Assembly: GCA_965226195.1 (NCBI GenBank) | Contig: OZ245333.1 | Location: 1,313,759-1,377,758, forward strand | Source: Oligoflexales bacterium | GTDB taxonomy: Bacteria; Bdellovibrionota_B; Oligoflexia; Oligoflexales; JAPPIL01 | Reading direction: 5' to 3' | Length of the DNA stretch: 64,000 nucleotides | Shown here: positions 1,813-59,241 of the stretch, piece by piece | How positions within the stretch are numbered: position 1 is the first letter of the stretch | Layout: the number at the start of each line of letters is the position of its first letter | Made by a program: the position numbers and the translations under genes | The notes under the pieces: generated by a model | What the model was told of the DNA's origin: nothing | Database searches by the model: none | The model's input: only the letters and a program-made list of their open reading frames with translations

Positions 1813-3118
1813 TTTTCCTGCATCGCTGCTGCTCCTTCTGCTGTCTTTTGGCTGCTACAGCGTGCATTTGCTCCAAAAACCATCAACGCTACCGCGTCAG
1901 GACTTTTTCCCCACAGTTAGATTTGCCGACGAACACGGGGTAGTTGTTGCGAGGGCAGTCGATCTGTCCTGCGACACCTTGTCACCCCTGCGCTTGCAAG
2001 TCAAACTACATGGCGCACCGCAGGCTTTCATGCCCAGCTTTGTCGTCCATGCCGACAACACGTTGCACACGGAGATCGACGGGCTTGTTCTCACTCCGCC
2101 ACAAGGTGTGCGTCCCGATTACCTGCAACTGCGACAGATACTGTGCCGTGCCATCGCTCGCCGCGGCAGTTTTTTTTATGGCACGGCAGACAACATGTTG
2201 CTGAGTTCTCTCGCTACATGGCTGCAGGTATTGTCCCCTCCTTGCCAAATAACCCACCAGCCTGCTCGTGGTTTTTACTGCGAGCTACTTGCTTCCGCGT
2301 CACAACCTGAGAAGAAAACGCTGGAGCGTATCAAGCTCCGCATGGTCAGTGCGTGGCAACGGCAGCCATATTTGTTGACACGCCGTCTTGCCATCGCTAT
2401 CGATCTCGCACAAATTCTCACCGACGGTGAGGCGCAACGTCTGACCCGCTTCTGCCGTGTTTTAAGCGACTCTTTCGTGCGCGAACTGCCGCTAATTTTC
2501 ATCAGCGTGCGTTGGCAGCAGAGCGTGTGCGATACACAAGATGTCGCGGCAAGACTCAAGCACGCCGCACTCGGTCTGGAACTGGCAGTGCAGGAAATTA
2601 CGCTGTTCAAGCAGCTCTTCGAGCGTGCCAGTCACCGCGGCAACGTTGCGGTGAGAATTGCCGCGCCTCTGAGTCACCGTTTCTGGGTGCTGCTCACACC
2701 AACTGCAGATACACGAGCAACAACTGTGCACCAATACCAGCAAGTGTTGGCAGCACGCGAGCAAAACAACGCTGTGCCACGCTGCTGGCATCCGTTTTTT
2801 TCCGAAAACATCCGTCTCCACAATCTCGCCAAAGCCGTTGGTCTGCACGCGGGGCACTGTGCCGCGGTGCGTTACCCGCAATTGCCCGCAGCCGCCAGCA
2901 ACGACCTTTTCGGTGACTATCTCGTTGCGAGCATTACCAGCGAGACAGAATTCGCCATCTCCAACGGACGCACAAAGTTTCTGCGCTTGCCATCGGGAAC
3001 TTACGACTATCGTATCTCGCACTTGCCCAACTATTATTTGCCTACATCCCGTACCGAAGTGGCCCGCGGCTCGATGCAGTGGCGCAAGCAACGCCTTAAC
3101 CATCAAGTGTTGCGCTAG
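1769..3118 (+). CDS. hypothetical protein with lipoprotein-like signal
   Basis: Long ORF. The internal ATG at 1769 gives MKLSCLPF...LLLLLLSFGC (lipobox-like). The track start at 1658 overlaps the previous ORF more heavily. No recognisable domain. Confidence 0.5.
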   Translation: MKLSCLPFKTSATFSFPASLLLLLLSFGCYSVHLLQKPSTLPRQDFFPTVRFADEHGVVVARAVDLSCDTLSPLRLQVKLHGAPQAFMPSFVVHADNTLHTEIDGLVLTPPQGVRPDYLQLRQILCRAIARRGSFFYGTADNMLLSSLATWLQVLSPPCQITHQPARGFYCELLASASQPEKKTLERIKLRMVSAWQRQPYLLTRRLAIAIDLAQILTDGEAQRLTRFCRVLSDSFVRELPLIFISVRWQQSVCDTQDVAARLKHAALGLELAVQEITLFKQLFERASHRGNVAVRIAAPLSHRFWVLLTPTADTRATTVHQYQQVLAAREQNNAVPRCWHPFFSENIRLHNLAKAVGLHAGHCAAVRYPQLPAAASNDLFGDYLVASITSETEFAISNGRTKFLRLPSGTYDYRISHLPNYYLPTSRTEVARGSMQWRKQRLNHQVLR

Positions 3119-3264: not shown

Positions 3265-4344
3265 ATGGTATTTCTACAGGAGTTTAACATAAAATTTTTA
3301 TTTAGTTTCAATGTGTTAGCGTGTTGTGTGGTTTTACTGCACGGTCTTGAGGTCAGGGGCAGTGCTCTCGCTCAAAACGCACCTTTTGTGCCGAAGGTTG
3401 GAGATGCGGTGAGTAAGGCATTGGGTATCGTACAGCGGTATGATTGGCATGAGTTAAAGGGCTTTATGGACGAATTGGTGCAAGAAATAGATGCTATCGA
3501 CAGCGACGCGGTGGCTACCATCCTGCAGAAGAAAGTTGTTGGACAACAACTGAAGAGGTGGGCAGCTGATCAAGTTTTAAGTTTGATAGCGATACAAGAC
3601 ATAGTTGCTGAGCATACAGAAGATGACAACTTGTTGCAGTTGTGGAACAATAACCCTCACAGTCCTACAGAAAATTTAATTGTGAAGATCGGGTTTCCTT
3701 TGCTGGTACCGCCGCAGTGGGAGAGAAAGTACTTCAATGAAAGGGAATTTTTGTTGGCAAAGTTTGCTAGCCTACCGCCTATGCAGCAAGCAGTTATTAT
3801 CAACATAATCTGGAGTTCAACCCTGAAAGACCGCCACCTCGGTTCTATACATGTGGGTGTGTCGAGTGATTATTTTTTGAAGATTAGAGAGCAAGACGCT
3901 GAAGCTTATTATTCTGACCAGCATTCACTAGAGGTGCGACGAAGGTTACATGCATTGCTTACCTTTGATATGAGGGAGAGCATGCCCGCGACTGCGGCCT
4001 TGACCAATGAAGACTTTCGTATTGATGACGCTCATAGCTTTCGATACTTTCACCATGTCTCGTTAGTGGAACAATTAGCGGTTGAAGGTGTGATGCAAGC
4101 TGTGGCAGCTGGTTTCCCACAACTTGCTCGCACTATTAGTCAGTTGACTGAAGAGCAGATAGCTTATTTGAACGCAAACTTGCAAGATAGTGATGGTTTC
4201 GAGGGGCACAGTCCTAAGCGAGGAACTGAAATCGCGGTAACACAAGATCTCAAATATTACGCCGCAGTACGTTTTTTTGCTTGGGCGGGTATAGGTATGG
4301 ATTATGCTAGACTTGATGCTAAAGTCCGAGCGCTAAGAGATTAG
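3265..4344 (+). CDS. hypothetical secreted protein
   Basis: 359-aa ORF with a hydrophobic N-terminus, preceded by a very AT-rich region (3150-3260). No recognisable domain. Confidence 0.5.
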   Translation: MVFLQEFNIKFLFSFNVLACCVVLLHGLEVRGSALAQNAPFVPKVGDAVSKALGIVQRYDWHELKGFMDELVQEIDAIDSDAVATILQKKVVGQQLKRWAADQVLSLIAIQDIVAEHTEDDNLLQLWNNNPHSPTENLIVKIGFPLLVPPQWERKYFNEREFLLAKFASLPPMQQAVIINIIWSSTLKDRHLGSIHVGVSSDYFLKIREQDAEAYYSDQHSLEVRRRLHALLTFDMRESMPATAALTNEDFRIDDAHSFRYFHHVSLVEQLAVEGVMQAVAAGFPQLARTISQLTEEQIAYLNANLQDSDGFEGHSPKRGTEIAVTQDLKYYAAVRFFAWAGIGMDYARLDAKVRALRD

Positions 4345-4435
4345 TGTGGAAGACGAGTGCGCTAAAAAACAGCTAACATAGTTACCCCAGCTGCTACAAT
4401 TTAGTTGTAAAAAAACAACTATGTGTCAACTAACT

Positions 4436-5686
4436 CTAAAGGAAGCTTGAGGACAGGCCAAGCTCCTCCTCAATTCGCAACAGCTGATTGTATTTGCACA
4501 ATCGCTCGCTGCGACACATCGAGCCACTTTTAATCATGTTGCTGCCTACAGCAACGGCGAGGTCGGCGATCGTCGTATCCTCTGTTTCGCCAGAACGGTG
4601 TGAGATGATGGTAGTGTAGCCGATGTCTGCTGCGGTTGCGATTGTAGCAAGTGTTTCGCTCAGTGTGCCAATTTGATTGAGCTTGATCAAAATCGCATTC
4701 GCCGCGTTCTTTTCTCTACCCTGCAGCAAACGCTCACGGTTGGTGACGAACAGATCATCACCTACCACCTTTACTCGTGCTCCGATTTTTTTGGTCAGCA
4801 GTGCGAAACCTTCCCAATCCTCTTGATCAAAACCATCTTCGATCGAGATGATGGGATACTTTTCGCTCAATGCAACGAGATAAGCGACCATCTCCTTGCG
4901 AGTTAACTCGCGCTTTTGCAAACAGTATTTGCCGTTCTGATAAATTTCCGATGCTGCAACATCGAGCGCTAAGCCAACCTCACGTTGCGGGTCGTAACCA
5001 GCCGCAGTGATTGCCTCTTGCACGAGATCGAGTGCTTGCTCTTCGCCGTCAAGACACGGGGCAAAACCGCCTTCATCACCAACGGCAACACCGAGTTTAT
5101 TTTTTTGTAAAATTTTCTTGAGTTCGTGAAAAATTTCTGCCGCCGCTTGCATGGAGGTTGCAAAGCTTGGCATGCCATAGGGCACGATCATGAATTCTTG
5201 AAAGGCAAGACCGTTATCGGCATGCACCCCGCCGTTGAGAATGTTGATCATCGGCACGGGCAGGCGTGTCGCACGTGCCCCGCCGAGATAGCGATACAGT
5301 GGCAACTGGCAGGTGCGTGCCGCGGCCTGTGCACAGGCAAGGGACACCGCTAGCATTGCATTTGCACCGAGTTTTTTCTTGTTAGCCGTGCCGTCCAATT
5401 CCAACAACACGGCATCGATTGCCTGCTGTGCAAGCACATCGCGACCGTTGAGTGCCGGAGCAATCAACTCACGTACGTTTTTCAAGGCCTTCAGCACACC
5501 TTTGCCGTGGTAACGTTGCGCATCACCATCGCGCAACTCGCATGCCTCAAAGCGTCCCGTCGAAGCCCCTGACGGGACCGCGGCACGTCCTTTTACGCCG
5601 TCGGTGGTGATGATCTCGACCTCGACCGTTGGGTTACCGCGTGAATCGATGATTTCACGTGCCAAGATGTGGGCAATGCTGCTCAT
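4436..5686 (-). CDS. eno: enolase (phosphopyruvate hydratase)
   Basis: N-terminus [19 protein letters not shown], plus [14 protein letters not shown] and other enolase signatures. Its start overlaps the mnmG stop by 4 nt. Confidence 0.96.
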
Positions 5687-7509
5687 GGTGTCCTCCGTCG
5701 TGCTGTGCGGTTGTGTAGAAAAACATGCAGCAGCTGCACTGCCGCGGGGGTTATGCCACTGATGCGCGCAGCTTGACCGAGTGTTGCAGGTCTGATGCGG
5801 GTAAGCTTCTCGACAAACTCACCTCGCAAGCCCGCGATGGAAGCAAACTCAAAACTGTGTGGAATACGCACACGTTCGAGATCGTCGAGCAGTTTCATGT
5901 TGCGAGCATCACGTTTGATGTAGCCCTCGTAACGAATTTCAATCTCGGCACTGCGCAAGGCACAGGGCGTAAAATCTCGCAACTGCGGCACAAGTGCAAG
6001 CATCTCTTGCTGACTAACATCGGGACGTTTCCAAAAATCACGTGCCGTGCCTCGTCCATCGCTGAGTCTTGTGCGTTGCAGCAGTGCGAGGCAATCCTGC
6101 AGTGCCGTGCGGCGTTGCAGGAAACGAGCCGCAGTATCACCATCGACCAGTCCGATTTCAATACCAAGTGGAGTCAAGCGCAAGTCAGCGTTGTCCTCCC
6201 GCAGCTGTAAACGGTGCTCAGCACGAGAGGTGAACATGCGATACGGCTCGCTCGTGCCTTTAGTGACGAGGTCGTCGATCATCACACCGATGTAAGCTTG
6301 CGTGCGCGGTAGCACTATGGGTGGCCTGCCCTGACAGGAATGTGCGGCATTGATGCCTGCCATCAAGCCCTGCGCCGCGGCCTCCTCGTATCCAGTCGTG
6401 CCGTTAATCTGCCCGGCAAGATAGAGGTGCACGGTGCGTTTAGTTTCAAGGCTGGGGTAAAGTTCTTGGGGATCAACGAAGTCATACTCGATTGCATAGC
6501 CGGGCCGAATTATTTCCGCCCGCTCCAGCCCTTTGATCGAACGTACAAAGGCTACCTGCGCCGCAATGGGCAACGAAGTTGAGATGCCGTTGGGATAAAC
6601 TTCACACGTGTCATAGCCTTGCGGTTCGAGAAATATCTGATGCGACTGGCGGTCGGGAAACTTGACTACCTTATCCTCGATCGATGGGCAGTAGCGCGGG
6701 CCGACACTTTTGATTTCACCGCTGTAAAGTGGTGACTGGTCGAGGTAACTACTGACGATCGTATGCGTATCGGTATTGGTAGCGGTAATATGGCAGGGTA
6801 ATAGTGGCTGCGTTATCTTTTCTGTGCTGAAGCTGAACGGGATAATGTCCGCGTCGGAATCCTGCCGCGTCAGTTGGCGGTAGTCGATGGTGCGGGCATC
6901 GAGACGTGGAGTTGTGCCAGTTTTCAAACGCCCGACGGCAAAGCCGTATTTTTGAAAAAAAACTGCCAACGCCACTGCCGCGGCATCGCCGGCGCGTCCC
7001 GCGGTGATACGAGTTGCTCCGATGTGAATGAGTCCGTTCAAAAACGTTCCACTAGTGATTATTACGCGCTGGGCGCGGCAATGACCAAAAATTTTGCTGT
7101 TCACACCCTGCACCTTGCCATCGGCAACGAGCAACTCCTCGACGCTGTCCTGCCGAATGTGCAGATTGGCTTGCTGTTCCAGAGTTTTTTTCATGTAGCG
7201 CTGGTAAAGTCCCATGTCCGCCTGCGCACGGGATGACCACACGGCAAATCCACGACTGCGGTTAAGCACCCGAAACTGAATGCCTGCACTGTCGATCGCC
7301 TTGCCCATCTCACCACCGAGTGCGTCGATTTCCTTGACCAGATGTCCCTTCGCGGTGCCCCCAATCGCAGGGTTGCAACTCATCGCCGCGATACGATCGA
7401 CCGCGTGCGTAATCAACAGTGTCTTCGCCCCCAAGCGTGCTGCTGCCAACGCTGCCTCGCATCCCGCATGTCCCCCACCGACGACGATTATGTTGTATTC
7501 CTCGTTCAT
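5683..7509 (-). CDS. mnmG: tRNA uridine 5-carboxymethylaminomethyl modification enzyme MnmG (GidA)
   Basis: 608 aa. FAD-binding N-terminus [23 protein letters not shown]. MnmG-like along the full length. Confidence 0.95.
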
Positions 7510-7531
7510 CTACTCATATCCACGTTTTTTT

Positions 7532-7715
7532 GCGGGCTGCTAATTCTTTGCCGCTTGCTAGCTCCTCGCATGTCCTCCGCCGACTACGATTATGTCATAT
7601 TTGTCTTGCATTTTCTTACCTCTATGCTTTAGCGAGCGGTCTGCTAATTCTCTGCCGCTTTCTAGCTCCTCGCATGTCCCCCACCGACTACGATGATGTC
7701 ATATTTGCTTTGCGT
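7532..7715. repeat. two tandem units of about 100 bp, each containing a relic copy of the mnmG 5' end fused to the dispersed core motif
   Basis: Units at 7532-7611 and 7632-7715. On the minus strand they read [17 protein letters not shown] (7558-7611) and [17 protein letters not shown] (7662-7715). The live mnmG start reads [19 protein letters not shown]. The in-frame TAG comes from the GGAGCTAG core. Confidence 0.85.
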
Positions 7716-7870
7716 GCTTATACCCAAATCAAAACCCTGCAGATCAGGTTATACCACGTTTAGGCTGGTTTTAATTTAATTTTAGGCAAATAAATGTTAC
7801 AATTAGCGGCTTAAGCTACCCTGCTTGGCGAGTAGCTCAGCGGGGATAACAGAGAAGGGGGATTGTCATC

Positions 7871-8944
7871 ATGTTTGCTGACATGGAACAGATGGGACAT
7901 GAACAGGTTGTTTATTGTTTTGATCAGACTACAGGGCTGCACGCCCTGATTGGTATTCATAGCACGGTACTCGGCCCCGCACTGGGTGGGTGTCGCATGT
8001 GGAACTACGCTAACGAGCACGAAGCATTGCAGGATGTTCTGCGACTGTCGCGGGGCATGACCTACAAGGCGGCGTTGGCTGGCTTGGCTTTGGGAGGCGG
8101 TAAGTCGGTAATTTTTGGCGATCCTGTCAAGGACAAGAGCGAGGCATTGCTACGCAGCTTTGGCAGGTTTGTGAACAGTCTCGGCGGCAGATACATCACT
8201 GCGCAGGATGTTAGCATTAGCAACACTGACTTATTGCACATGCACAAGGAGACCAAGCATGTCGTCGGTCTACCAGCAGAGATGGGTGGTACTGGTGATC
8301 CCTCGCCGATGACGGCACTGGGTGTCTTCAGCGGTATCAAGGCTGCGGTCGAACATCGTTTGCAAAAGAACAGTTTGCGCGGCGTGCGAGTTGCCGTGCA
8401 GGGTTGCGGCAGTGTTGGGAATAAGCTCTGCCACCTGCTGCACAAAGAAGGAGCTGAATTGTGGATCGGTGATATCGATGCGAACAAAACTGCACCGCTG
8501 GTGGCAAGCTGCGGGGCGAAGGTGATAGATAGCGATGCACTGCTATGTGCTGAAGTCGATGTGTTCTCTCCTTGTGCCCTCGGCGCAATTTTGGACGACG
8601 ACAGCATTCCGCAACTGCAGGCCAAAATCGTCGCAGGTGGTGCGAACAACCAGCTAGCAGACGAGAAAGTACATGACGAGATGCTGCGCACCCGCAATAT
8701 TCTCTACGCGCCTGACTATGTCATCAATGCAGGTGGGTTGATCAGCGTTTCGTATGAAATTAAAAAAATGACAGGCACAGCCGCCGAAAAAACCAAAGCA
8801 ATCTATGACACGTTGTTGGAAATCTTCCACCGTGCCGAACAACAGGGTGAAGGCACCGGCAAGACCTCCAACCGTCTCGCCGAAGAGCGGGTGCGTCGGC
8901 AGGTAAGAGCTTCTATCAGCAACCAGCAACGATTGATTGGCTAA
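7871..8944 (+). CDS. leucine dehydrogenase (Glu/Leu/Phe/Val dehydrogenase family)
   Basis: LGPALGGCRMWNY, RLSRGMTYKAALAGLALGGGKSVIFGDP and the NAD-binding VAVQGCGSVG motif closely match the LeuDH pattern. Confidence 0.88.
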   Translation: MFADMEQMGHEQVVYCFDQTTGLHALIGIHSTVLGPALGGCRMWNYANEHEALQDVLRLSRGMTYKAALAGLALGGGKSVIFGDPVKDKSEALLRSFGRFVNSLGGRYITAQDVSISNTDLLHMHKETKHVVGLPAEMGGTGDPSPMTALGVFSGIKAAVEHRLQKNSLRGVRVAVQGCGSVGNKLCHLLHKEGAELWIGDIDANKTAPLVASCGAKVIDSDALLCAEVDVFSPCALGAILDDDSIPQLQAKIVAGGANNQLADEKVHDEMLRTRNILYAPDYVINAGGLISVSYEIKKMTGTAAEKTKAIYDTLLEIFHRAEQQGEGTGKTSNRLAEERVRRQVRASISNQQRLIG

Positions 8945-8954
8945 AACACGAAAT

Positions 8955-9650
8955 TCAAGCAAAGAGCAGTTTCTCCAGTGCCGCGATGCGCTGATTGCTG
9001 TCCAGCTGCTCCCAGTCGGGTAGTTGGTGCAGGTTGCCGTTCTTCAAAACGATGGCACGATCGCACAGCTGCGCGGCGAGCGGTAAAATGTGGGTGCTGA
9101 TCACGTTACTGAGCTGCTGTTGCTTGCGGCTCGTGAGGAGCTCGTGCAGGGTTCTGAGGTGAAAGACATCAAGGCCAGAGAACGGCTCGTCGAGCACCAA
9201 TAGCGGTGGCTGATGCAGGGTGGTGACAGCAAGACCAACTCGCTTCTGCATGCCATGCGAGCAGAGGGTCAGCGGCAAGCTCTTGTAGTGCGCACAATCC
9301 CAACGCTGGAGAGCCAGCGGCACGACTGTGGCACTGTTCAAGCCGTAAAGACGCGCGGCGTAATGCAGCAGTTCCTCGCCGCTAACCCACGGGGGAAAGA
9401 CAGGTGTCTGTGGTAGGAAACCGAGTGCTTTTTTAAGCGCAAAGGCTTCGGGGGTGAAGCGCTGAGCGCGGAAAACTACCTCACCTGCGTCAGGGTCTAG
9501 GTTGGCGGTCATCAGATTGAAGAGGGTGGACTTGCCCGCACCGTTTTTGCCGAGAATTCCGAGTGTTTCGGCACTGTTGACCTGCAGGTTGCAGGGGCCG
9601 AGTTGGAAGCCTGCGGCGAAGGTTTTGTGAATGTCGGTCAGGGTCATCAT
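8955..9650 (-). CDS. ABC transporter ATP-binding protein
   Basis: Walker A GKNGAGKST, a signature-like SHGMQKR and Walker B LLVLDEPFSGLD. Confidence 0.9.
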   Translation of the reverse strand: MMTLTDIHKTFAAGFQLGPCNLQVNSAETLGILGKNGAGKSTLFNLMTANLDPDAGEVVFRAQRFTPEAFALKKALGFLPQTPVFPPWVSGEELLHYAARLYGLNSATVVPLALQRWDCAHYKSLPLTLCSHGMQKRVGLAVTTLHQPPLLVLDEPFSGLDVFHLRTLHELLTSRKQQQLSNVISTHILPLAAQLCDRAIVLKNGNLHQLPDWEQLDSNQRIAALEKLLFA

Positions 9651-10702
9651 GCGCGATAAAACCTACCTTCGCTGTACTGCAACGCATACCAACGCAACAG
9701 CGGATACAGCAGCACGCTGAACCAGCTGGCGAGGATGGCAGTGCCGATGAACAAGGTACTGAGTGTCGCGGTAATATACTGCACCGCGGGACGGCGCACA
9801 TCGATTTGAAACAATAGCAGCGGCATCAGCAGCGGGGCAAGTGCGGCCAGCAGCACGACCTTTAGGACTGCGGGGAGAAGTGGCAATATTGGCTCAGCCA
9901 ACAGCAGTTGCCCACTGATGAAGCAAAAAGCGCAGCACAGCACACAGCAGAGGGCGAGGCTCGCACCAATTTTTTCGCAGGTGCGAACGTATTGGGTGTG
10001 CGAGATGCCGAAGTTTTTTTCCGCCCACGCAAACTGTGCGTCACGAGCTGCCTGTGATGCAAGGCTAAAGGAGGCCAGCAGTCCACAAACGAGTGCTGCG
10101 CAACCAAACACCTGCAGCGGTGCGTTGAGGTAGCTGAGCGGGAAACAACTCAACGCGGCACAAGCGGCGATGCCGAGCAGCAAGCGTTCGCCCTGCAAAA
10201 TCTGCTGCCAGCGCCACGAGAACAGCGTGTGCTGGCTAGCCTTGTGCTGTGGTACGGGGTGGGGGTGGCGGGCGAGCAAGAAGCCGAGCAACAGTGTGGG
10301 CGGAAAAACAAACAGCAGAGATATAAAGGAATTAGCACGCAACAGCAGGTGGCAGAGCAGCACTATGACGGCGGTACTTATCAGCAGCGCCCAGCCGCCG
10401 CGTAGCAAGAGAAAGACGCGTAGCTGGTGTGGTTCTGCGCCGAGATGTCGTTGTAGTTGGCAATAGCGGTCGTGGCTGGCATGGCGCATAAACTTGCCGA
10501 GACCGAAGGCGGTGATCGCGGTGCAAAGTAGTGCGGCTGCATGGGCGAAGCTGTCACGCATTGTAGGGGAGATGGCAGCGACGGCATGGTTGAGAAAATC
10601 GTGGAAGACATAAGCGAAGGTGGCAGCAACGACAAGGGCGCAGAGCATCACGGTGATTTCCTTGCCGAGATCGTAGCGCACCCGGCGCAGCGGTGCAAGC
10701 AT
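9647..10702 (-). CDS. polytopic membrane protein, putative permease partner of the ABC ATPase
   Basis: Multiple hydrophobic segments and a 4-nt overlap with the ATPase start. I prefer the ATG at 10702 (MLAPLRRVRYDL) because the track start at 10897 overlaps the ferredoxin gene. Confidence 0.55.
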   Translation of the reverse strand: MLAPLRRVRYDLGKEITVMLCALVVAATFAYVFHDFLNHAVAAISPTMRDSFAHAAALLCTAITAFGLGKFMRHASHDRYCQLQRHLGAEPHQLRVFLLLRGGWALLISTAVIVLLCHLLLRANSFISLLFVFPPTLLLGFLLARHPHPVPQHKASQHTLFSWRWQQILQGERLLLGIAACAALSCFPLSYLNAPLQVFGCAALVCGLLASFSLASQAARDAQFAWAEKNFGISHTQYVRTCEKIGASLALCCVLCCAFCFISGQLLLAEPILPLLPAVLKVVLLAALAPLLMPLLLFQIDVRRPAVQYITATLSTLFIGTAILASWFSVLLYPLLRWYALQYSEGRFYRA

Positions 10703-10751
10703 GCTACACCTGAACAGATATGTGCAGGTTGAGTGCAGGGCTTGGCAGCTT

Positions 10752-11057
10752 TTAGTCGGCATCGATGCAAATTTCCACGTCGCCCATGATACGGCTCTGG
10801 CAGGCGAGGCGTTCGTCGGGATCGGCACGCATAGCCCGCAAAAAATCCTCCTCTTTAGCATTGCGTGGGGAAATATTTTCCCCACCTTGCAGGACACGGA
10901 AGATACAGGTACCGCAATCGGCGTTGCGGCAGCCGAATTCGATGGGGGTGTCGTCGTGCTGTGCGCACAGTGCTTGAAAGCCCAGCCCGCACCGCACCTG
11001 CCATGAACGTGGTGGTGCGGGTGGTTTGGTGATGGTGACGGTGCAGGCTTGTTTCAA
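10752..11057 (-). CDS. 2Fe-2S ferredoxin-like protein
   Basis: Cys pattern C-x4-C-x2-C ... C (FGCRNADCGTCIFRV ... LACQSRI), typical of the plant-type 2Fe-2S fold. Confidence 0.7.
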   Translation of the reverse strand: MKQACTVTITKPPAPPRSWQVRCGLGFQALCAQHDDTPIEFGCRNADCGTCIFRVLQGGENISPRNAKEEDFLRAMRADPDERLACQSRIMGDVEICIDAD

Positions 11058-11413
11058 GGTGTGTCCTTTTCTTTCGGCATCAGTTGTTCCCGCCAGAATG
11101 ATTTTTTGTAGAACTTGCCGCGGTATCTTTTGTGTGTGGGGTTATCGACCATAAAGCCACGCCCGCGCTGGTCATCGACCCAATCGATGGTCGAGCCAGT
11201 GACAAAACGTAGACTGTCGGTATCGACGATGACATCGACTTTGCCTTGTGGGAAGTGGTGATCGCTCGGTGTGGGATGATCGAAAGCCACACCATAATAG
11301 AAGCCATCACAACCCTTACCTTCGAGATAGAGGCGCAGGCTAGGCTTGCCCGCATCCTGTTGCAGCTCCTCTGCTTTAGTAACAGCTCGTTCTGATAAGG
11401 TGATACTCATCAT
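11054..11413 (-). CDS. HesB/IscA-like protein lacking the C-terminal Cys pair
   Basis: LRLYLEGKGCDGFYYGVAFD matches the IscA/HesB core. The C-terminus GFMVDNPTHKRYRGKFYKK has no CGC motif. Confidence 0.65.
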   Translation of the reverse strand: MMSITLSERAVTKAEELQQDAGKPSLRLYLEGKGCDGFYYGVAFDHPTPSDHHFPQGKVDVIVDTDSLRFVTGSTIDWVDDQRGRGFMVDNPTHKRYRGKFYKKSFWREQLMPKEKDTP

Positions 11414-11604
11414 AACCTCCTTGCAGAGGTGATTTGAGCAGAAAGCGAGCTAAAATTCAATGCCGAATTTTGGTGGTAAGGGAGGATGATGGAAGAAAAA
11501 AATGTGGTTCTGTGTCATAATTATTTGATTTTATTTTTCTTTGCAGATAAACTCGTTAGCAGTGGTAGGTTTTTGATTACAATCACTTGTGTAGGAGAGT
11601 AGTT

Positions 11605-12762
11605 ATGCGTTTTCTGATCACAGCCCTCGTCTTCGGCTTGGCTTCCATTGCTCAAGCTGGCGATCAAGACAAGCACGGAGATGGCAAGACGACGGTCAAA
11701 CTTTCATATGACTGGAGTGTGTCTGTCACCGATGAGAATCTCGGACGAGATACGGAGGATGATGGAGATTTTAAAGTCAGGGCAATTGAGAACAGTGCTG
11801 ATGCCGAGATTGATTTCAGCAAAGAATGGGGTGGTGTCAAAGTCGATGTTAGCTACAACTTGGTAAACGGTCTGGAGAGCGCGGTTGCAACTGCGGAATT
11901 GCCCCATAGTTACCTGAGTGTTGCCTTTGGTAAGGGCGTGTTGGATGTTGGTGGTTGGCAGGAGTATTCATCTCCGTACCTCTCTTACCACAACCCGTTT
12001 CCAGAGTATGGGCCGATGGTGAAGGTCTTTGCCCCGATCGAAGGTTTCGGTGAGTTGTCCTTGATGATTACTAACGATGTGATGGAAGGCGACGACAAGC
12101 GTTGGCACAACGACGACAAGTCGATCATTGGTCTCGCCCAGTACAAAGGCAGCTTTGGTGCCGTTTCTCCCTTGTTGCAGTTCGCGATGTATGACTTCAA
12201 GTCCGGCGGCGATGACGACAGCAAAGACGGCTGGCAGTCATGGGTAATGGCATTAGGGGCGAAGATCGCTTTGCACAACTTGACAGTGCATCTTGATTAC
12301 GTTCACGACAGCCGCAAGAACAAAGATGGTGAGAAGGATATTGAGAATAGCACCACCGTTTATCGTAACTACACTGCGGGTTTATACTACGAGCAAGGCA
12401 TGGTTTCGCCGTGGGCGAGCATTTCGATGCTAATGTCTAAAAACGACGATAAGCGTTATGAAAACATCGAAGGTAACTACATGCCACCTGCTGAAGGTGC
12501 TGGCAAAGATTACGATGAGGCGTTGAAGAAGATGTTCGGTGTAGAGAGCTACGGTGACCTCAAAGACTACCAAAAATACAGCTCCAACATGATGGTCTTG
12601 GAGGTTGGCACATACATCAAATGTATAGAGGATAAGGTGCTTCCTTATATCTCTTACAAGATGAAAATGCACAAGATTGATACAGACTGGACTAAAGGAG
12701 ACAGCGACACAGCTGATCAGACCAGTCACAGTATTACCTTTGGTATTGAAGGCGTTATCTGA
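11605..12762 (+). CDS. putative outer-membrane beta-barrel (porin-like) protein
   Basis: The ATG at 11605 follows an AGGAGA RBS. Signal peptide MRFLITALVFGLASIAQA. Alternating amphipathic, aromatic and Gly-rich segments. A strong terminator lies downstream. Confidence 0.4.
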   Translation: MRFLITALVFGLASIAQAGDQDKHGDGKTTVKLSYDWSVSVTDENLGRDTEDDGDFKVRAIENSADAEIDFSKEWGGVKVDVSYNLVNGLESAVATAELPHSYLSVAFGKGVLDVGGWQEYSSPYLSYHNPFPEYGPMVKVFAPIEGFGELSLMITNDVMEGDDKRWHNDDKSIIGLAQYKGSFGAVSPLLQFAMYDFKSGGDDDSKDGWQSWVMALGAKIALHNLTVHLDYVHDSRKNKDGEKDIENSTTVYRNYTAGLYYEQGMVSPWASISMLMSKNDDKRYENIEGNYMPPAEGAGKDYDEALKKMFGVESYGDLKDYQKYSSNMMVLEVGTYIKCIEDKVLPYISYKMKMHKIDTDWTKGDSDTADQTSHSITFGIEGVI

Positions 12763-12788
12763 TTTCTGCCGCAACGCAGGATTTTGTC

Positions 12789-12820
12789 AAAGCTGGGGGC
12801 GTGTGTCCCCCAGCTTTTTC
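12789..12820 (+). terminator. rho-independent terminator
   Basis: AAAGCTGGGGG-cgtgtgt-CCCCCAGCTTT followed by a T-run, directly after the stop at 12762. Confidence 0.8.
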
Positions 12821-12892
12821 TATGTTATCTTGACGGTAGCATCTCGTAGGTGGTAGTTAGTCTCGTTTGTATTGAGCAAGGAGATTCTGACG

Positions 12893-13213
12893 GTGAGTTT
12901 GCAGGTTTTTACGGACGACAATTTTGATGCTGAGGTGCTCAAGTCGTCGCAACCAGTGTTGGTTGATTTCTGGGCTCCTTGGTGTGGCCCTTGTGTTTCA
13001 ATTACGCCTGCGATAGAGGCGATTGCAACAGAGTGGCACGGGCGGGTGACGGTTGGCAAGGTGAACGTAGACGAGAACGCCAATACACCGGCGGCCTATG
13101 GGGTGCGTTCGATTCCTTACTTTGTGCTAATCAAAGATGGTGAAGTTATCGACACTGTTGTCGGAGCTTCAAAAGAAAAATTAACGGCAATGCTCGAAAA
13201 AAACATCAGCTGA
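12893..13213 (+). CDS. trxA: thioredoxin
   Basis: WAPWCGPC active site. The GTG at 12893 lies 9 nt after AAGGAG. The track start at 12872 (TTG) is the alternative. Confidence 0.92.
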   Translation: MSLQVFTDDNFDAEVLKSSQPVLVDFWAPWCGPCVSITPAIEAIATEWHGRVTVGKVNVDENANTPAAYGVRSIPYFVLIKDGEVIDTVVGASKEKLTAMLEKNIS

Positions 13214-19238: not shown

Positions 19239-19452
19239 TCGAAAGAGATTCAGTGATCTGATGCTGCTGTGAGTGCCAGACAAAGCACGGTACTTATGTT
19301 TTTCCTCTCGTGCGTGCTACGCAAGACTTTTTGCCGCTTGCTAGCTCCTATGCTTGCTCTCCTCGGCGGGGGCCTATCGGAGTAGCAACAGCCCTCACCA
19401 GCATAGATAGGCAGAGGTTGTTGGCAGCAATCAGATCACTGAATCTCTTTCG
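19239..19452. mobile_element. 214-bp MITE-like element bounded by about 28-nt inverted repeats
   Basis: Arm 19239-19266 (TCGAAAGAGATTCAGTGATCTGATGCTG) is the reverse complement of arm 19425-19452 with one mismatch. The interior carries a core-motif copy (19327-19348). Confidence 0.65.
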
Positions 19453-19699
19453 CCAGCCTCTAAAGCCGCGAGCCTTGATTCGGGGTTTGGTTTTGTGGAG
19501 AGAACAAGCACTGTGCCTGAACACATGAAGCGAGCTGGAGCTAGGCAGCGGCAGGGAGTCTCGCTCGCGAAGCGAGCGTTACAAATAAGGCGGCGTAGCG
19601 AGCGTTGATACGGTTTGGTTTTGTGGGATAGTGCTTGCTACACCTAAGTCTGTGATGTCCGCAAATATTAACAAGGGGGCAGTAGGTATCATCACTGTG

Positions 19700-19885
19700 A
19701 ACCCATTTCACGCGAATGCGCCAGCTGGAGCTAGGAAGCGACAAAGAGCTTGCACACATGTGTGCATGGTGCAGCAGGATGCTTCCTCCCAATCCCAAAC
19801 AAAATTAGCGAACAGAAGGGGTGTGGAGCTAGAAAGCGGCAAAGAGCCGTGCAAAGCGGGGAGGGGAACGCTCCCCGCATACAGA
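19700..19885. repeat. partial copy of the interior modules of the 41140/57653 MITE (no terminal repeats)
   Basis: CCATTTCACGC..CAGCTGGAGCTAGGAAGCGACAAAGAGC..GCACACATGTGTGCATG...GTGTGGAGCTAGAAAGCGGCAAAGAGCCGTGCAAAGCGGGGAGGGGAACGCTCCCCGCATA aligns with 41297-41570 and 57810-58005. Confidence 0.8.
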
Positions 19886-20015
19886 CGATACCTGTTGACC
19901 CAACCAAAAGTATGCAAACAGAAGGGGAAAGAGGAGAGAGGGCTATCATCACGCCGGAAAACATTGTTCTGTCTCACTCATTTTGATAGATTACCCTTGT
20001 GGTTTTGAGGGACTT

Positions 20016-26161: not shown

Positions 26162-26189
26162 CGAAAATGAGCCAAGTGGCTCATTTTCG
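26162..26189. terminator. hairpin between convergent genes, overlapping the topA stop
   Basis: CGAAAATGAGCCA-ag-TGGCTCATTTTCG is a near-perfect palindrome. Confidence 0.5.
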
Positions 26190-28802
26190 CTCTTGCCATT
26201 TGCCATTTACCCAGCTTGCCGACCATTTGCTCGGCTTGCTTTGCGACTTTCTCGGCTCCATGCCGCTTTCTCGCTCCATGCCGCTTTCTCGCTCCGCCAT
26301 CCCGACGAGATAGTAGCTGCGTGTTTTGCGGCTGAATTTGATTGCCACCTTGTTGCCTTCATTGTCCAGCGGCGGTGCTTCGAGCAAAAATTGAAATTTA
26401 GGATCAATTTCGCTTGCATGCCGTTGCAGGTCTTCGACTAGCGGCGCACGTGTTTCCCGTGACCGCGGGTAGTTGCTTGATGCGAGAAAAATTCCCGACG
26501 CACCGTCCCGCAACACAAAATAGCCGTCCGATTTTTCACAGCGCAACTCAGGCATAGGCACGGGGTCGGCGCGCGGCGGAGCAGCTTCGCCGTTACGCAG
26601 CAACTTGCGGGTGTTCTTGCATTCAGGATAAGCCGTGCAAGAAAAGTATTTGCCGAAACGCCCTGTCTTCAGCTGCATGTCCCTGCCGCACTTGTCGCAG
26701 GTCAGCAGCGGCCCCTCATACCCCTTGATCTTGAAGTTGCCATGTTCAATCTCGTAGGCAGAGCAGTCGGGATTGTTGGCGCAGATGTGCAAACATCGCT
26801 GTGCATCAATAAGGTAGGCTGTCATCGCCGTCGCACAATTCGGACAACGATGCCGCGCTTGCAGTTCTTTCACCCCCTCATCATCATCGCTGACCGTCTC
26901 TTCACCCGCGACGAGATTGATCGTCTCTTTGCAACGTTCCTTAGGCGGTAGCTGATAGCCCGAACAACTCAAGAATACCCCCGTCGAAGCATTCCTGATC
27001 ATCATATTGCGCTCACATTTGCACTTGAGTTTGATCTCCGTCGGGGCGTTGGGACGCATGTTTTCTTCTGCCGCCTGCAGGGTTGATTTGAAGTTGCCGT
27101 AAAAATCGTTTAGCACCTGTAGCCACTTTGCCCTGCCATCCGCGATCGCATCCAGATCCTCCTCCATGCTGGCGGTGAAGCCAAAATTCATCAGCCTCTG
27201 GAAATTTTCTTCGAGCCGACTGGTAACGATGTCACCCATCTTGAGCAGGTAAAAACGCCGCTTCTCGACTTTCACATAACCGCGCTCTTGGATCGTTGAA
27301 ATAATGTTCGCATACGTTGACGGTCTCCCAATGCCGCTCTTTTCCAACTCCCTGACCAGTGCGGCTTCGGAATAACGCGGCGGTGGGCGGGTGAACCGCT
27401 GGTTTTCTTCAATATCGATGAGCTTCAGCACCTCGCCTTCACGCAACTCTGGCAAGATCACGTCTGTCTCTTTACTGACGGGTGGCAGCACCTTCTGGTA
27501 GCCATCTAATTTCAAGATACGGCCGCGCACTTTCAGTTCAAACTCTTCTGCCGTAATCGTGACCGTTGTCGTATCAAATTCCGTCCGTGCCATCTGGCTG
27601 GACACGAAATAACGCCAAATCAACTCGTAGAGACGCACCGCCTCTGCATCTTTAAAGACAAAATTCTGCGGTATGAGTTGCACGTCCGTCGGGCGAATTG
27701 CTTCATGAGCTTCCTGAGCTGCTTTGCTGCTTGCGTAGACGTTCGCGCTTTGCGGCAAATATGGCTTGGAGAAGTTGCTGCCGATGTAAGCTCGACACGC
27801 GGCAATGGCATCCTTGCTAACGTTGGTCGAATCGGTACGCATGTAGGTGATGTGTCCTGCCTCGTAGAGACGCTGGGCAAACATCATTGTTTTGCGCACC
27901 CCGAAGTTGAGACGTGTGCTTGCCGCTTGCTGCAAAGTCGAAGTAATCAGCGGGGCGGGCGGCTTCGATTGTGCTGCCTTCTTCTCGCAGGCACTGACGA
28001 CGAAACGACATTGTCGCAAGTGTGCGCTCTTTTGTGCGCAGCTGTCCTTATCGAGCGGACGAAACGGTTTATCTTGTTCTTTGACCACCTGTGCTTTGAG
28101 CTGGCTGCCGTTTTTAAGGTTGCAGAAAACTTCCCAGAACTCTTCGATCTTGAAGGCGTTGATTTCCTTCTCACGCAAGGCAATCAGCTTGACCGCCACC
28201 GATTGCACCCGCCCTGCCGACAGACCGCGGGCGATTTTTTTCCACAGCAGAGGCGATACCATGTAGCCGACGACACGGTCGAGGAAACGCCGCGCCTGCT
28301 GGGCGTTGACACGATCCATGTTGATTTTCTGCGGTTGTGCGAATGCCTCTTGCACCGCCTTGCGGGTAATTTCGCTGAACGTCACCCGTCGATAGCGTTC
28401 TTCCGCTCCGCCAATCGCCTCACGCAGATGCCACGCGATCGCTTCGCCTTCACGGTCAAGGTCGGTAGCGAGGTAGATGATATCGGCAGTTTTTGCCAGT
28501 GTCTTCAGCTCCTTCAGCACTTTTTCCTTGCCCGGCAAAATCTCGTAATATGCTTGCCAGTTGTTGTCTGGATCGACAGCAAGACGGTTGATCAGTGCGT
28601 CGTGGGTGGATTTTTTGCTCGTCGTCTTTTGCTTCGCCGCCGTGGGTTTCTTGCGCCCACCACCGCTAGTTGGCAGGTCACGCACATGCCCGATACTCGA
28701 TTTAACGACATACTGCCGTCCCAGGTACTTGTTAATTGTGCGAGCTTTCGCGGGCGACTCGACGATGACCAGACTTTTAGTGGCAGCCAAAATATGCCCC
28801 AA
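26181..28802 (-). CDS. topA: DNA topoisomerase I with a repeat-derived C-terminal tail
   Basis: TOPRIM N-terminus [18 protein letters not shown], active-site region and multiple C4 Zn ribbons. The tail reads ...[22 protein letters not shown]. Confidence 0.95.
26245..26295. repeat. tandem 18-bp units related to the dispersed core motif, inside the topA 3' end
   Basis: ATGCCGCTTTCTCGCTCC occurs twice (26260-26295) after a degenerate unit. It resembles ATGCCGCTTTCTGCTTCG and CCGCTTTCTAGCTCC in the 63261 array. Confidence 0.7.
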
Positions 28803-30098: not shown

Positions 30099-30111
30099 GT
30101 GTAAGTCGCAA

Positions 30112-30140
30112 ACATCTGCTGTCTATAGCTTAAGTGGGAG
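30112..30140 (-). promoter_or_regulatory. sigma70-like promoter block upstream of purA
   Basis: On the minus strand: TTGCAA, a 17-nt spacer, then TATAGA, about 15-25 nt upstream of the purA start. The same 29-nt block recurs at 34427-34455. Confidence 0.45.
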
Positions 30141-30217
30141 AAGTTTGCAAAGTTTGCAATCCGACATGCGCCGCACAATGCTGTATGTTATCATGATTAC
30201 ATAGTTGCGGAGTTAGC

Positions 30218-32579: not shown

Positions 32580-34343
32580 TCACTGTCGATATCCGTCCCT
32601 GAGTCTGCTCATAGGGGTGTAGCGCATCAGGCACTCATAAATTAGCAACATAGCTCCCAGTGTTACGAGAATCGTCATGATGTATTTGATGTCCGCTGGC
32701 AATATCCAGGTTCGCATTGTCTTCTGTAGTAAAATTACTAGAGGTGGGTGAAAAAGAAACAGCCAATAGGCGTTGTCAGAGATGTAATTCCATATCTTAC
32801 TTTCATCACTTATCATATGACGGAAGAGACCAATCACGGCAAATACCATCACCCATGTGAATGTTGCTTGCATAGCTACCGAAATCAGATATTGCATTTC
32901 GGATAGGTGCAGCCCAAATCCTGGTACTGGAAACGCAAAACGCAAAATACCGATGGTCATACCGATGGGAAAAATAAGCAGCAAACCCAATAGCAACGCT
33001 ATCACCCAGTGTTTTCCTAATTTGCCGCTATTATCATCGCAATCGTAGTAGACGACACCGAAGAAGAAAAAGATACTATAGTAGAAAAGAACATGTGCTG
33101 GAGGAAAGATGGCTGTCGCATGGTCAGGGCCAAAGCCGGCCATTGTTCCTTGTGCTGCCATGAACCACTGGGGAATCATGGTCAGAGGTATTAACCACAG
33201 ATAGCGATAGGGAGATAGCACCATCTTCTTTGCTATCCCTGTCCCCTTCCACCGACCAGCAATTGCAGCATAGAGAACAAAAAAAGGCATCAGTAAGCAG
33301 ACAAACCATAAGAACCAGATGTGATAGAGAGTTTCCTTCTCTGCCAGTACATACCACACATCCTTTTCTCTGGGTTCACCCTCACTGGCCGTAGCATGTT
33401 CACTATCCTCTGCTAGTGGTGGCGGTATCTTGCCACTAGCTTCATGCTGAACTAAAAGTTCAGCTACGTTTACCCAGCCCAGATGAATCTCTCTTAAATC
33501 AATGACAAGCTGCCACTCTCTGATCTTATTAAGCGTATTTTTCCAGCCAAATTGGGCGCGCTGCAACGGTGTTTCACCGTTGTCATCTTTGGCAACAACG
33601 TTAGCACCTCTTCGTATGAGAAGCTCTGCAACTCTGTCTTGACCCATAGAGGCAGCCTCGTGCAGAGCTGTGCCACCATCGTTGTTTTCACTGTCTATCC
33701 TCGCGCCTATCTTGAGAAGATGGTGGACAACTTTAACCTTATCGGCTGCCGCCGCCCACGTTAGGGGAGTGAGGCCATTTTGGGGATCGGGTGCGTCGAT
33801 GTCCACCCCCTTAGCTAGATGTGTATTAATTTTTTCCACATCCCCATTTCTTGCCGCACACCAGATACTTGTTGCAGAGGCTTCAGGAGATACACAGATA
33901 GGGTTATTACCTCTATCTTGTTGAGCCAGTGACCTTATCGCATTCATGTAGAGCCAGGTCGAAAGTGGAACAATCGTAGCAAATGTCAGTAAAAAGGGTA
34001 GCAGTAGGTGACGAAACCTGTGCCGTAGCATTGCCGTTAATCCCAACCTACGCCATAACCTTGCGGTAAAAAAACCACTGGTAAGGAAGAACGTTTGCAT
34101 CAAAAAGCCACTCCCCATTATGAAGGGAATGACGTACCAAATACTCCTTTGTGTATCTTGAACGGGCCAGGCTGAGTCAAAAAATGGCAAAGAGCCAAAC
34201 TGAGCCAAAACCATCAACATGGCGATGGCACGCAGGGCATACAGGTCACGACGGAAAATGGGAGCTGGTGTTTGCACTCCTGAATAGTAGCAATTTTTGC
34301 AAATAGAGTCTATAACTACTGCAACTTCAATATGGTGTGCCAC
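32580..34343 (-). CDS. acyltransferase-3 family membrane protein with an inserted ankyrin-repeat block
   Basis: N-terminus FRRDLYALRAIAMLMVLAQFG and later HIWFLWFV are typical of the Acyl_transf_3 family. Residues of about 150-300 carry 3-4 ANK repeats (NGLTPLTWAAAADKVKVVHHLLKIGARID..DGGTALHEAA..). Confidence 0.65.
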   Translation of the reverse strand: MAHHIEVAVVIDSICKNCYYSGVQTPAPIFRRDLYALRAIAMLMVLAQFGSLPFFDSAWPVQDTQRSIWYVIPFIMGSGFLMQTFFLTSGFFTARLWRRLGLTAMLRHRFRHLLLPFLLTFATIVPLSTWLYMNAIRSLAQQDRGNNPICVSPEASATSIWCAARNGDVEKINTHLAKGVDIDAPDPQNGLTPLTWAAAADKVKVVHHLLKIGARIDSENNDGGTALHEAASMGQDRVAELLIRRGANVVAKDDNGETPLQRAQFGWKNTLNKIREWQLVIDLREIHLGWVNVAELLVQHEASGKIPPPLAEDSEHATASEGEPREKDVWYVLAEKETLYHIWFLWFVCLLMPFFVLYAAIAGRWKGTGIAKKMVLSPYRYLWLIPLTMIPQWFMAAQGTMAGFGPDHATAIFPPAHVLFYYSIFFFFGVVYYDCDDNSGKLGKHWVIALLLGLLLIFPIGMTIGILRFAFPVPGFGLHLSEMQYLISVAMQATFTWVMVFAVIGLFRHMISDESKIWNYISDNAYWLFLFHPPLVILLQKTMRTWILPADIKYIMTILVTLGAMLLIYECLMRYTPMSRLRDGYRQ

Positions 34344-34426
34344 GGAAAATTCAAGCGGAGGGTATTATCGGCGAATGGTAGATAGGATGCAGCAACCACA
34401 AGCACTTAAGGCGTAAACGTTGGTTG

Positions 34427-59194: not shown

Positions 59195-59241
59195 CAGCCA
59201 CCCCACATAGCTAGCTGACTCCCTATCTTAGTGATGCCCTC

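Follow-up and report, generated by a model that had tools for sequence, protein, structure and literature searches.

We analysed the region around mnmG in a stretch of 64,000 nucleotides from an Oligoflexales bacterium (GenBank assembly GCA_965226195.1, contig OZ245333.1). This whole stretch is called the window, and positions are counted along it unless another locus is named; related loci were compared with mnmG turned to the plus strand. Upstream of the live mnmG lie relic copies of its own 5' end, at 7510-7715 on the minus strand. They form two head-to-tail units of 102 and 104 bp, and each unit consists of a segment shared with the live gene (D) and a filler (F). In the window, D comprises about 14 nt from the end of the mnmG 5' untranslated region (UTR) and codons 1-15, and F is about 45 nt long. 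The filler carries a core motif, GGAGCTAG(A/C)AAGCGGCA(A/G)AG. The features of the locus, with the motif copies located by motif search, are as follows.

5683-7509, minus strand: live mnmG, an open reading frame (ORF) of 608 aa with GIDA, GIDA_C_1st and SAM_GIDA_C domains (precomputed Pfam, identical protein); relatives at 99% to 72% identity
7510-7523, minus strand: upstream part of the live D, GTGGATATGAGTAG, the ribosome-binding region right before the live ATG, homologous to the native pre-ATG sequence of L083 and L093
7510-7611, minus strand: unit B (U2), 102 nt, with relic D at 7567-7611 and filler plus ribosome-binding region at 7510-7566; its mini-ORF stops at a TAG within the motif
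7546-7565, minus strand: core motif copy in unit B, GGAGCTAGCAAGCGGCAAAG; it forms the exact 5' end of the filler
7612-7715, minus strand: unit A (U1), 104 nt, with relic D at 7671-7715 (ACG start) and filler plus a good Shine-Dalgarno (SD) sequence (AGAGGTAAGAAA) at 7612-7670
7650-7669, minus strand: core motif copy in unit A, GGAGCTAGAAAGCGGCAGAG
7748-7756, minus strand: conserved extended -10-like element TGGTATAAC, about 32 nt upstream of the ancestral start; TGnTATAAc or TGnTATrr in all lineages displayed
7871-8944, plus strand: Glu/Leu/Phe/Val dehydrogenase gene, the divergent neighbour and a syntenic anchor in L082, L084, L085 and L087-L093

Each relic is translated into 17 residues, at 7555-7611 and 7659-7715 of the minus strand, and the upstream relic has ACG where ATG is expected. 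In the live gene, the segment shared with the relics is the first 45 nt (7465-7509). Two relic copies of the mnmG 5' end, one of them with ACG, had been described in an original prediction made from the sequence alone, and their coordinates and sequences are all confirmed. A repeat finder independently detected both units, as an 89-nt repeat with 85% identity and a spacing of 104, and all three D copies (50 nt, 78-80% identical, spacings 102 and 104). Furthermore, the independent Logan assembly ERR14231558 (L081), which is from the same strain, matches the window identically over 13.5 kb, and therefore an assembly artefact is ruled out. The sequence in front of the live start reads GTGGATATGAGTAG/ATGAAC in the window, TTGGATATGAGTTGTAGCA/ATGAAC in L083 and GAGGATGAGTAAGGCAACGAC/ATGAAC in L093. 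Of the 91 ORFs of the window, none but mnmG is preceded by copies of its own 5' end (score 25.5 vs 9.7 +/- 2.1); a search for other genes with duplicated 5' ends at the motif, as the original prediction had proposed, thus found none in the window.

Relatives of MnmG were collected as a graded series from a large protein database, and the contigs of the matches were compared; 14 genomes were sampled. Species-representative genomes contained no close MnmG relative, the best being 65% identical. The closest named relatives are Oligoflexales for MnmG (~63-66%) and Gammaproteobacteria for Topoisomerase I (~60%). The unit numbers, with MnmG identity referred to the window, are as follows.

Window: reference, 2 units (104 and 102 nt)
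L082: MnmG 99%, 4 units
L090: MnmG at least 90% (P0001 cluster), 5 units
L091 and L092: MnmG at least 90% (P0001 cluster), 3 units
L093: MnmG at least 90% (P0001 cluster), 1 unit, in which the filler is two copies of the motif family's 45-nt unit
L083: MnmG 91%, 0 units
L084: MnmG 88%, 0 units
L085: MnmG 88%, 1 unit
L087: MnmG 88%, 1 unit
L086: MnmG 88% (same protein as L087), array interrupted by a gap of 100 N, no count
L088: MnmG 86%, 3 units
L089: MnmG 86%, 3 units with a 110-nt period
L096: MnmG 83%, 0 units, outgroup

Strains with MnmG at least 90% identical differ by a DNA distance of 1.1-7% and have 1, 2, 3, 4 or 5 units, and the sister lineages L084 and L087 have 0 and 1, respectively. 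Two nested lineages (L083 and L084) and the outgroup L096 are array-less. Copy number thus varies from 0 to 5 between close relatives. Across lineages the units are 101-110 bp long, and the filler, 30-59 nt, always starts with the motif. The spacings are 102 and 104 in the window, 104 four times in L082, 101 and then 104 four times in L090, and 110 nt in L089. D is exactly -10 to +45 in L087, where 54 of 55 positions are identical to the live copy, and about -19 to +60 (~79 nt) in L088 and L089. The L093 filler is made of two copies of the 45-nt unit that forms an array at 63.3 kb of the window, and this indicates that the filler is a bona fide member of the motif family. The motif is linked to the array in every array-bearing lineage, so that the predicted connection with a dispersed core motif is real. 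Neither a fixed relic number without the motif nor a simple tandem duplication unlinked to it was found, either of which would have spoken against the original prediction.

A conserved AT-rich stretch ending in TGnTATAAC lies upstream of the first relic in all genomes compared. The first relic and the ATG of the array-less L084 are at the same distance from TGnTATAAC. Because of this match, the most upstream relic is placed at the ancestral start and the units are taken to have been added between it and the live gene; in the window, it is the D of unit A that corresponds in position to the L084 ATG. The order of the copies reflects their age, as had been proposed. The TGGTATAAC element is presumed to be the mnmG promoter, in which case the array would be transcribed as a leader; a two-hexamer sigma-70 promoter scan did not call this element at 7748-7756.

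Relics and the live 5' end exchange sequence in a recognizable way. In L090, the same 104-mer makes up units 2, 3 and 5, and its D has the sequence of the live 5' end; in L082 the units form two pairs. Relics and live genes contain, in differing mosaics, two D haplotypes (...TATGACATAATC...GGTGGGGGA and ...TACAACATCATC...GGCGGAGGA). These identical units and mosaics look like the signature of unequal exchange, or of slippage with gene conversion, in a tandem array that would include the live 5' end. Such participation of the live 5' end explains two further observations. First, P0001, a 99%-identical relative, has the N-terminus MQDKYD, as in window relic B, whereas the window live start reads MNEEYN and its relics MQDKYD and TQSKYD. 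Second, the window live start with 14 nt upstream is a third haplotype, common to L093 and L083. A patch of ~40 nt at 7492-7531 (minus strand), made up of 22 nt at the end of the leader and 18 nt at the beginning of live mnmG, is strongly unlike L082 and L090, which are elsewhere ~99% identical. This suggests a short recombination or conversion tract that may have come from another, L093/L083-like haplotype. In L093, the relic (MPSEYD) and the live start (MNEYD) are sharply different upstream of +16 and identical from +16 to +45. Live starts thus differ from the relics in the window and L093, and relic and live D are identical or nearly so in L087, L089 and L090. A fresh 5' end displacing the older one, as the original prediction put it, is correct in that MNEEYN has replaced a start of the MQDKYD type in the window, but the stacking of units is explained by ordinary unequal exchange. 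The start codon of the first unit is ACG in the window, L082, L090 and L091/L092, and ATG in L093, L085, L087 and L088. Collapse onto an ACG copy would leave mnmG without a start codon, and we therefore infer that the ACG first unit acts as a ratchet that retains at least one unit.

Where the filler came from can be examined at the junctions. A plain local tandem duplication of about -14 to +90 of mnmG would explain why unit length is similar (104-110 nt) in both classes of junction described below, and MAFFT sets the relic AGCAG(C/A)CCGC under the gene's AGCAGCACGC; the core would then be decayed or gene-converted mnmG coding sequence. However, local alignments of the filler with mnmG downstream of the same genome's junction were no better than shuffles in 8 lineages (p = 0.16-0.97). 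The similarity between gene and motif at the junction is that expected by chance: as a motif look-alike the segment at the junction reached a score of 8 (background 5.0 +/- 1.5), scores of 9-12 were obtained for dozens of sites, and with lineage-specific motifs 5-36% of background sites did equally well. The loose resemblance of the live gene to the core, to which the original prediction had drawn attention, is therefore at chance level, and a natural motif-like target in the live gene was rejected for the same reason. Moreover, a stretch of 20 nt in the filler is an exact match to the motif family, and in L093 the match comprises two complete 45-nt units, for which mnmG cannot be the source. 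Plain duplication is thus highly improbable and, by these alignments, appears effectively refuted. Two other routes were also considered. Slippage between AAGCGGCA of the motif and GAAGCGGCA of the gene (L089) was rejected, as at the join the gene's own copy is followed by a motif that is still complete. D begins in the 5' UTR, and a retro-duplication from the 5' end of the mRNA was therefore considered; it was dropped on inference only, since the transcription start predicted from the conserved -10 element would lie 8-15 nt upstream of the D boundary (-10 to -20).

The fillers of all arrays are related to each other. Nine of nine align past the motif (GGAGCNAGNAAGCG-GCAAAGAAT-yvGCAkhCCGC). 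There are two junction classes, after codon 15 or after codon 20 of mnmG; they are 15 nt apart and in L088 are bounded by GCGGGA repeats. Since the 15-nt difference lies between these repeats, slippage can turn the codon-20 junction into the codon-15 one. Microhomology at the junction is 0-3 nt. In a neighbour-joining tree of mnmG positions +100 to +1780, with support counted out of 200, the crown group (the window clade, L087 and the array-less L083 and L084) was supported by 200/200 and the pair of L084 and L087 by 197/200. The array-bearing L085, L088 and L089 fall outside the crown group. On this tree, one gain with two losses would clearly be more parsimonious than five gains, and loss through recombination of one D with another is mechanistically trivial.

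The full finding, a clade-wide, polymorphic 101-110-bp minisatellite of the mnmG start region together with a lineage-specific dispersed repeat, is real. As its best explanation, we favour, with a probability of roughly 0.6, one old illegitimate duplication-plus-filler event, the product of which is now a minisatellite in the transcribed mnmG leader and the relics of which have no required function. The D-F-D arrangement would have arisen once, in the ancestor of a clade whose mnmG now differs by up to ~23% in DNA. In this illegitimate event, with 0-3 nt of microhomology, codon 15-20 of mnmG would have been joined to a repeat element, followed by a restart at the ribosome-binding region; its simplest form would be a tandem duplication with a templated insertion at the join. 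In the later minisatellite phase, unequal homologous exchange or replication slippage between copies of D (and F) would change the number of units, which is 0-5 today, and exchange between relic and live 5' ends would reshuffle the N-terminal codons of MnmG. Live mnmG forms the last, complete copy of the array. Tandem growth of the motif family elsewhere (in the Topoisomerase I loop of the window and of the relative P0132, and in the 63-kb ORF, all described below) was also counted for a minisatellite.

Several points weigh against a single old event. The basal branching order (L085, L088, L089 and L096) is poorly supported (112-122/200) in this sample of 14 genomes. Founding intermediates, namely D-D without filler or filler without duplication, were not found in the sampled genomes. 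In L089, filler is also present ahead of the first D; this would suit remodelling at a later time or a different origin, in which a copy already lying upstream took part in unequal exchange. A templated insertion of random origin would seldom draw on a family that makes up <1% of the genome, and a filler starting precisely at the 5' end of the family may point to a process specific to the element. Finally, 55-nt direct repeats 104 nt apart are easily lost, yet the array has been kept in most lineages over ~20% DNA divergence; this could reflect selection or re-creation instead of neutrality.

The original prediction had read the locus as repeated insertion at one spot of mnmG. In such a scheme, a motif-associated integrative or recombining element repeatedly targets this spot and each event brings a fresh 5' end with a ribosome-binding site. 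For dusA and prfC, integrative elements are documented by which the 5' end of the target gene is restored (PMC8409611, PMC2791158), and therefore restoration of a 5' end as a mirror image of the known 3'-end restoration is not new. As with these elements, the displaced native 5' end lies upstream, the replacement is fused to an intact housekeeping gene, here also a tRNA-modification gene (PMC8409611, PMC2791158), one short sequence is found at both junctions, and in the window, though hardly or not at all in L087, L089 and L090, the live N-terminus differs from the displaced one. Repeated integration would also account for the oldest copy being furthest upstream, for the variable copy number and, in every lineage, for a filler whose beginning coincides exactly with the motif's 5' end. 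The other-haplotype 5' end and ribosome-binding region of the window, confined to the ~40-nt patch, and the sharp break at +16 in L093 were likewise counted for it. However, the dusA and prfC elements are 20-100 kb long, bring genes for an excision factor and a tyrosine recombinase, and each of them leaves behind a single displaced fragment, whereas the mnmG copies are separated only by repeat-family filler, have no recombinase nearby and are amplified locally. The mnmG locus thus lacks the defining parts of such elements. No integrase is encoded next to mnmG in the window or the 12 related loci, where the neighbours are a Glu/Leu dehydrogenase, an ABC transporter, enolase and similar (precomputed Pfam); excisionase genes and terminal inverted repeats are missing too. 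There is no cargo DNA between the 5' copies, which are 101-110 nt apart with only 30-59 nt of filler between them and lie as contiguous 101-110-bp blocks between housekeeping genes. Furthermore, the units of one genome are identical or nearly so and match their own live D, as local amplification predicts and separate imports do not. The homologous fillers and the tree favour a single gain, the junction in the gene is no better a look-alike than 5-36% of background sites, and no other gene of the window has such a pattern. Repeated integration is therefore unlikely.

We also looked at the motif outside mnmG. The motif has 18 matches with <=3 mismatches in the window against 0.01 expected, and none of 100 shuffles reached 18. 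Within the 64 kb, these matches sit at about 7 loci. A defined 5' end (...GGAGC) with the consensus start GGAGC[T/G/A]AGAAAGCGGCAAAG, modular 3' extensions and an internal 11-nt direct repeat (AGAAAGCGGCA) characterize the family. Its members are intergenic beside housekeeping genes (LptF/G, ProRS, a DNA methylase and an aminotransferase), within a composite repeat of ~250-400 nt (3 copies in the window), or in frame within two genes. The copies other than those at mnmG include the following.

19329-19348, minus strand, and 19537, 19727 and 19825, plus strand (span 19329-19844): motif copies in the LptF/G-ProRS intergenic region (motif search)
26247-26295, minus strand: 18-nt motif repeat, 2.7 copies, read in frame as ERESGM within the C-terminal loop of Topoisomerase I (gene 26181-28802)
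41319-41338, inside the composite intergenic repeat, and 41779-41798, plus strand (span 41319-41798): motif copies (motif search, repeat finder)
57832-57851, plus strand: motif copy in the second full copy of the composite repeat (motif search, repeat finder)
63265-63626, minus strand: array of the motif, repeating at 18, 27 and 45 nt and read in frame as DSLPLS(A/S)S repeats in a plus-strand ORF running off the window

The periods of the 63-kb array are all multiples of 3, and it is read as (S/R)DSLPLS(A/S)S(MPLSAS) in a host ORF (at least 62901-63998) without a Pfam match. In relatives, the Topoisomerase I loop contains a single EQENAK, EQENGK or GQESGK or is shorter. In the 83% relative P0132, it has an independent two-fold ELESGK expansion at the same spot. 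The composite repeat lies at 19640-19990, 41139-41700 and 57652-58110, with a perfect palindrome (GCATGCACACATGTGTGCATGC) after a motif copy. In two of its copies the second motif is broken by a small hairpin (GGAGCTAGG/CGTGCCTTCGGGCACGCC/TTTGGCAAAGAG), and the 41-kb copy has an extra insert of ~60 nt within a GGGGAGGGGAACG...CTCCCC hairpin. A scan of JGI metagenomes for the exact motif showed that it is essentially absent, apart from two unrelated chance matches within a coding sequence, and a literature search on the motif string returned no paper. The family thus appears to be private to the lineage of the window.

The dispersed motif may itself be active, as a non-autonomous element or as a protein- or nick-associated hot spot that causes re-copying of its flanks, seeds arrays and perhaps re-creates the one at mnmG. 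The motif is present in every inspected window array with a period of at least 18 nt (18 in topA, 18/27/45 in the 63-kb ORF and 104 at mnmG). The expanded filler of L093 and the independent growth of the Topoisomerase I loop in two lineages are consistent with activity, as are the defined 5' end of the family and its confinement to one lineage. In addition, the copy at 19825 is surrounded by a second, ~30-nt flank duplication (19788-19822 and 19899-19927), which recurs at the counterparts at about 41.2-41.4 and 57.7-57.9 kb. Because this duplication is common to all three copies of the composite repeat, it reflects one old event, and this counts against an active motif. Solitary copies (19348, 19727, 41779 and others) have no flank duplication; their scores of 6-9 are at background level. 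Slippage at the internal 11-nt repeat alone makes the motif prone to tandem growth, and Pfam scans of the surrounding ORFs, and elsewhere in the window, detected no transposase, integrase or other candidate enzyme gene near any motif copy. Homologous fillers and the phylogeny also oppose recurrent creation at mnmG. An active motif is possible, but we regard it as doubtful.

Does the array have a function? Under the single-event explanation, the relics would be decoy mini-ORFs of ~17 codons that each have SD, ATG and stop and no required function; they would lie non-functional in a leader transcribed from the upstream promoter-like element. An alternative is a selected regulatory leader, a contingency locus in which the number of decoy starts and mini-ORFs tunes MnmG translation and gives population heterogeneity. 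The persistence of an easily deleted array over ~20% DNA divergence, the range of 1 to 5 copies among near-identical strains and the retention of SD and ATG by interior units agree with this idea. However, exchange with the live copy maintains both SD and ATG automatically and no selection is needed for them, and in four genomes the first unit now has ACG where its ATG was. Two nested lineages and the outgroup manage well with no array. Neither the stop nor the frame of the mini-ORF is conserved: TAG occurs only in GCTAG variants of the motif, and the periods of 104-110 nt are not multiples of 3. The TAG closing the frame, which had been listed as a feature of the relics, is absent from the GCGAG variants of L085, L088 and L089 and hence incidental. 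The leader gave no RNA fold signal (z = -0.14), and no intrinsic terminator or sigma-70 two-hexamer promoter was found in it. Rfam showed no match at E<=1 in 7300-8000 and none at the gathering score in the whole window. Selection for regulation is thus improbable. A structured cis-regulatory leader RNA was rejected, as there is no Rfam family, fold signal or terminator. As a side result of the Rfam search, no tRNA, rRNA or riboswitch was detected in the 64-kb window. We also searched for oriC beside gidA/mnmG. From 3805 to 13146 there is no DnaA box like TTATCCACA (<=1 mismatch), and GC skew tells nothing about oriC at the scale of the window. Such 9-mers (<=1 mismatch) are commoner in the window than expected (29 vs 10.8 +/- 3.3). 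Three of them cluster within 150 nt at 44559-44702, in a gene for an OpuAC-type substrate-binding protein, and two more lie at 42460-42639; none is near mnmG.

A wider scenario combines activity with regulation. The GGAGC(T/G)AGAAAGCGGCAAAG family would be a non-autonomous repeat that duplicates tens of target bases (55-79 nt at mnmG and ~30 nt at the composite repeat) and seeds intergenic and coding minisatellites, and the mnmG leader would be hypermutable, with the number of decoy starts tuning translation and the relics reshuffling N-terminal codons. We consider this combination to be quite doubtful.

The anatomy of the mnmG locus can be compared with known systems. Template switching (fork stalling and template switching, FoSTeS, or microhomology-mediated break-induced replication, MMBIR) produces a tandem duplication with a templated insertion, mainly in eukaryotic or experimental settings and as one-off events. 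The D-F-D arrangement, the 0-3 nt of microhomology and the short filler from elsewhere in the genome are similar, but the product at mnmG is a long-lived polymorphic array, and its filler comes from a specific family and starts at that family's defined end. Tandem duplications mediated by repetitive extragenic palindromic (REP) sequences were reportedly described in Salmonella and E. coli by Shyamala et al. in 1990. A dispersed short repeat exactly at the join of a tandem duplication is common to both cases. REP-mediated duplication, however, needs two parental repeats flanking the segment, whereas an L084-like parent has the motif on neither side and the junction in the gene is not motif-like. 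This mechanism was rejected, as no parental motif flanks the segment and the join contains a full motif instead of a hybrid. Fragments of tRNA and tmRNA genes are said to pile up at integration hot spots (Williams, 2002-2003, 'traffic at the tmRNA gene'). There too, several partial copies of one gene end are stacked beside the intact gene in order of age. Those piles consist of 3' fragments with whole islands between them and a distinct integrase event for each; mnmG has 5' ends in homogeneous units and no islands.

Mobile elements and CRISPR were rejected as well. For a MITE (miniature inverted-repeat transposable element) or other transposon, no inverted repeats of at least 9 nt were found in the units of the window or L088, and L082 has a weak 14-nt pair (79%). 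Instead of a target-site duplication of a fixed 2-15 bp, the duplicated target is ~55 nt in L087 and ~79 nt in L088 and L089. For a CRISPR-like array, the 'spacers' are identical in every unit, and there are no cas domains among the scanned neighbours.

The MIRU-VNTR loci of mycobacteria (mycobacterial interspersed repetitive units-variable number tandem repeats) are 40-100-bp repeats at tens of loci, arranged head-to-tail and polymorphic between strains, with small ORFs abutting the flanking genes (PMC3184786, PMC3635867). The mnmG units are comparable in size (101-110 bp), in copy number (0-5), in the mini-ORF of each unit and in the dispersal of the core motif at about 7 loci. Of the hallmarks of minisatellites and VNTRs, head-to-tail units and strain-polymorphic number were found. 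Unlike MIRU-VNTR, in which the same unit is present at every locus, over half of the mnmG unit copies the start of the adjacent gene, the full D+F occurs only at mnmG, and only the motif part of ~20-45 nt is interspersed. The motif family also differs from MIRU-VNTR in building in-frame arrays inside genes. Rickettsia palindromic elements and similar short repeats are inserted in frame into protein genes (reviewed in PMC3184786). The motif family is likewise read through in frame in Topoisomerase I and the 63-kb ORF; unlike those elements, it is not palindromic, and at mnmG its frame has a stop and lies outside the functional gene.

Beyond the array, several other features of the window were observed. 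Direct repeats of 51 nt, 80% identical, at 30102-30152 and 34407-34457 surround a 4.3-kb segment of lower GC content (0.46 vs 0.51). This segment contains two orphan ORFs and an ankyrin-repeat acyltransferase, and it may be a small island beside purA. Tandem paralogous genes without a Pfam match lie at 58063-58976 and 59195-60156 and have 75-85% DNA identity over several blocks. Between them, at 59049-59194, a 146-nt segment from the end region of the aminotransferase gene (57127-57272) is repeated. Ankyrin-repeat proteins are encoded in the window (32580-34343, 48721-49269 and 49564-50676) and near mnmG in L088 (157-1329) and L089 (6247-6789). These proteins, together with contigs of 1.6-3.2 Mb, suggest a host-associated lifestyle.

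The array also affects annotation and assembly. MnmG of L089 is annotated with 627 aa, of which a false N-terminal extension of 20 residues (3001-3060) comes from the array. In L088, the array gives rise to a 76-aa ORF with faint GIDA and Pyr_redox matches (2672-2902), and spurious small ORFs are called across the arrays of L082 (2537-2815) and L093 (2815-2991). In the short-read scaffold L086, a run of 100 N (about 1067-1166) lies exactly within the relic array; the same species has one unit elsewhere (L087). The array breaks short-read assembly.

The mnmG locus is a clean natural example of an essential-type gene that survived an insertion into its first 20 codons. It survived because its own translation start was duplicated along with the insertion. 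The scar of the insertion turned into a long-lived and fast-changing tandem array that still exchanges sequence with the live gene. For typing strains of this lineage, which is uncultured and apparently host-associated, such an array would be a good marker. If it is true that the motif family drives the duplications, this would be a new mechanism of repeat-induced genome plasticity.

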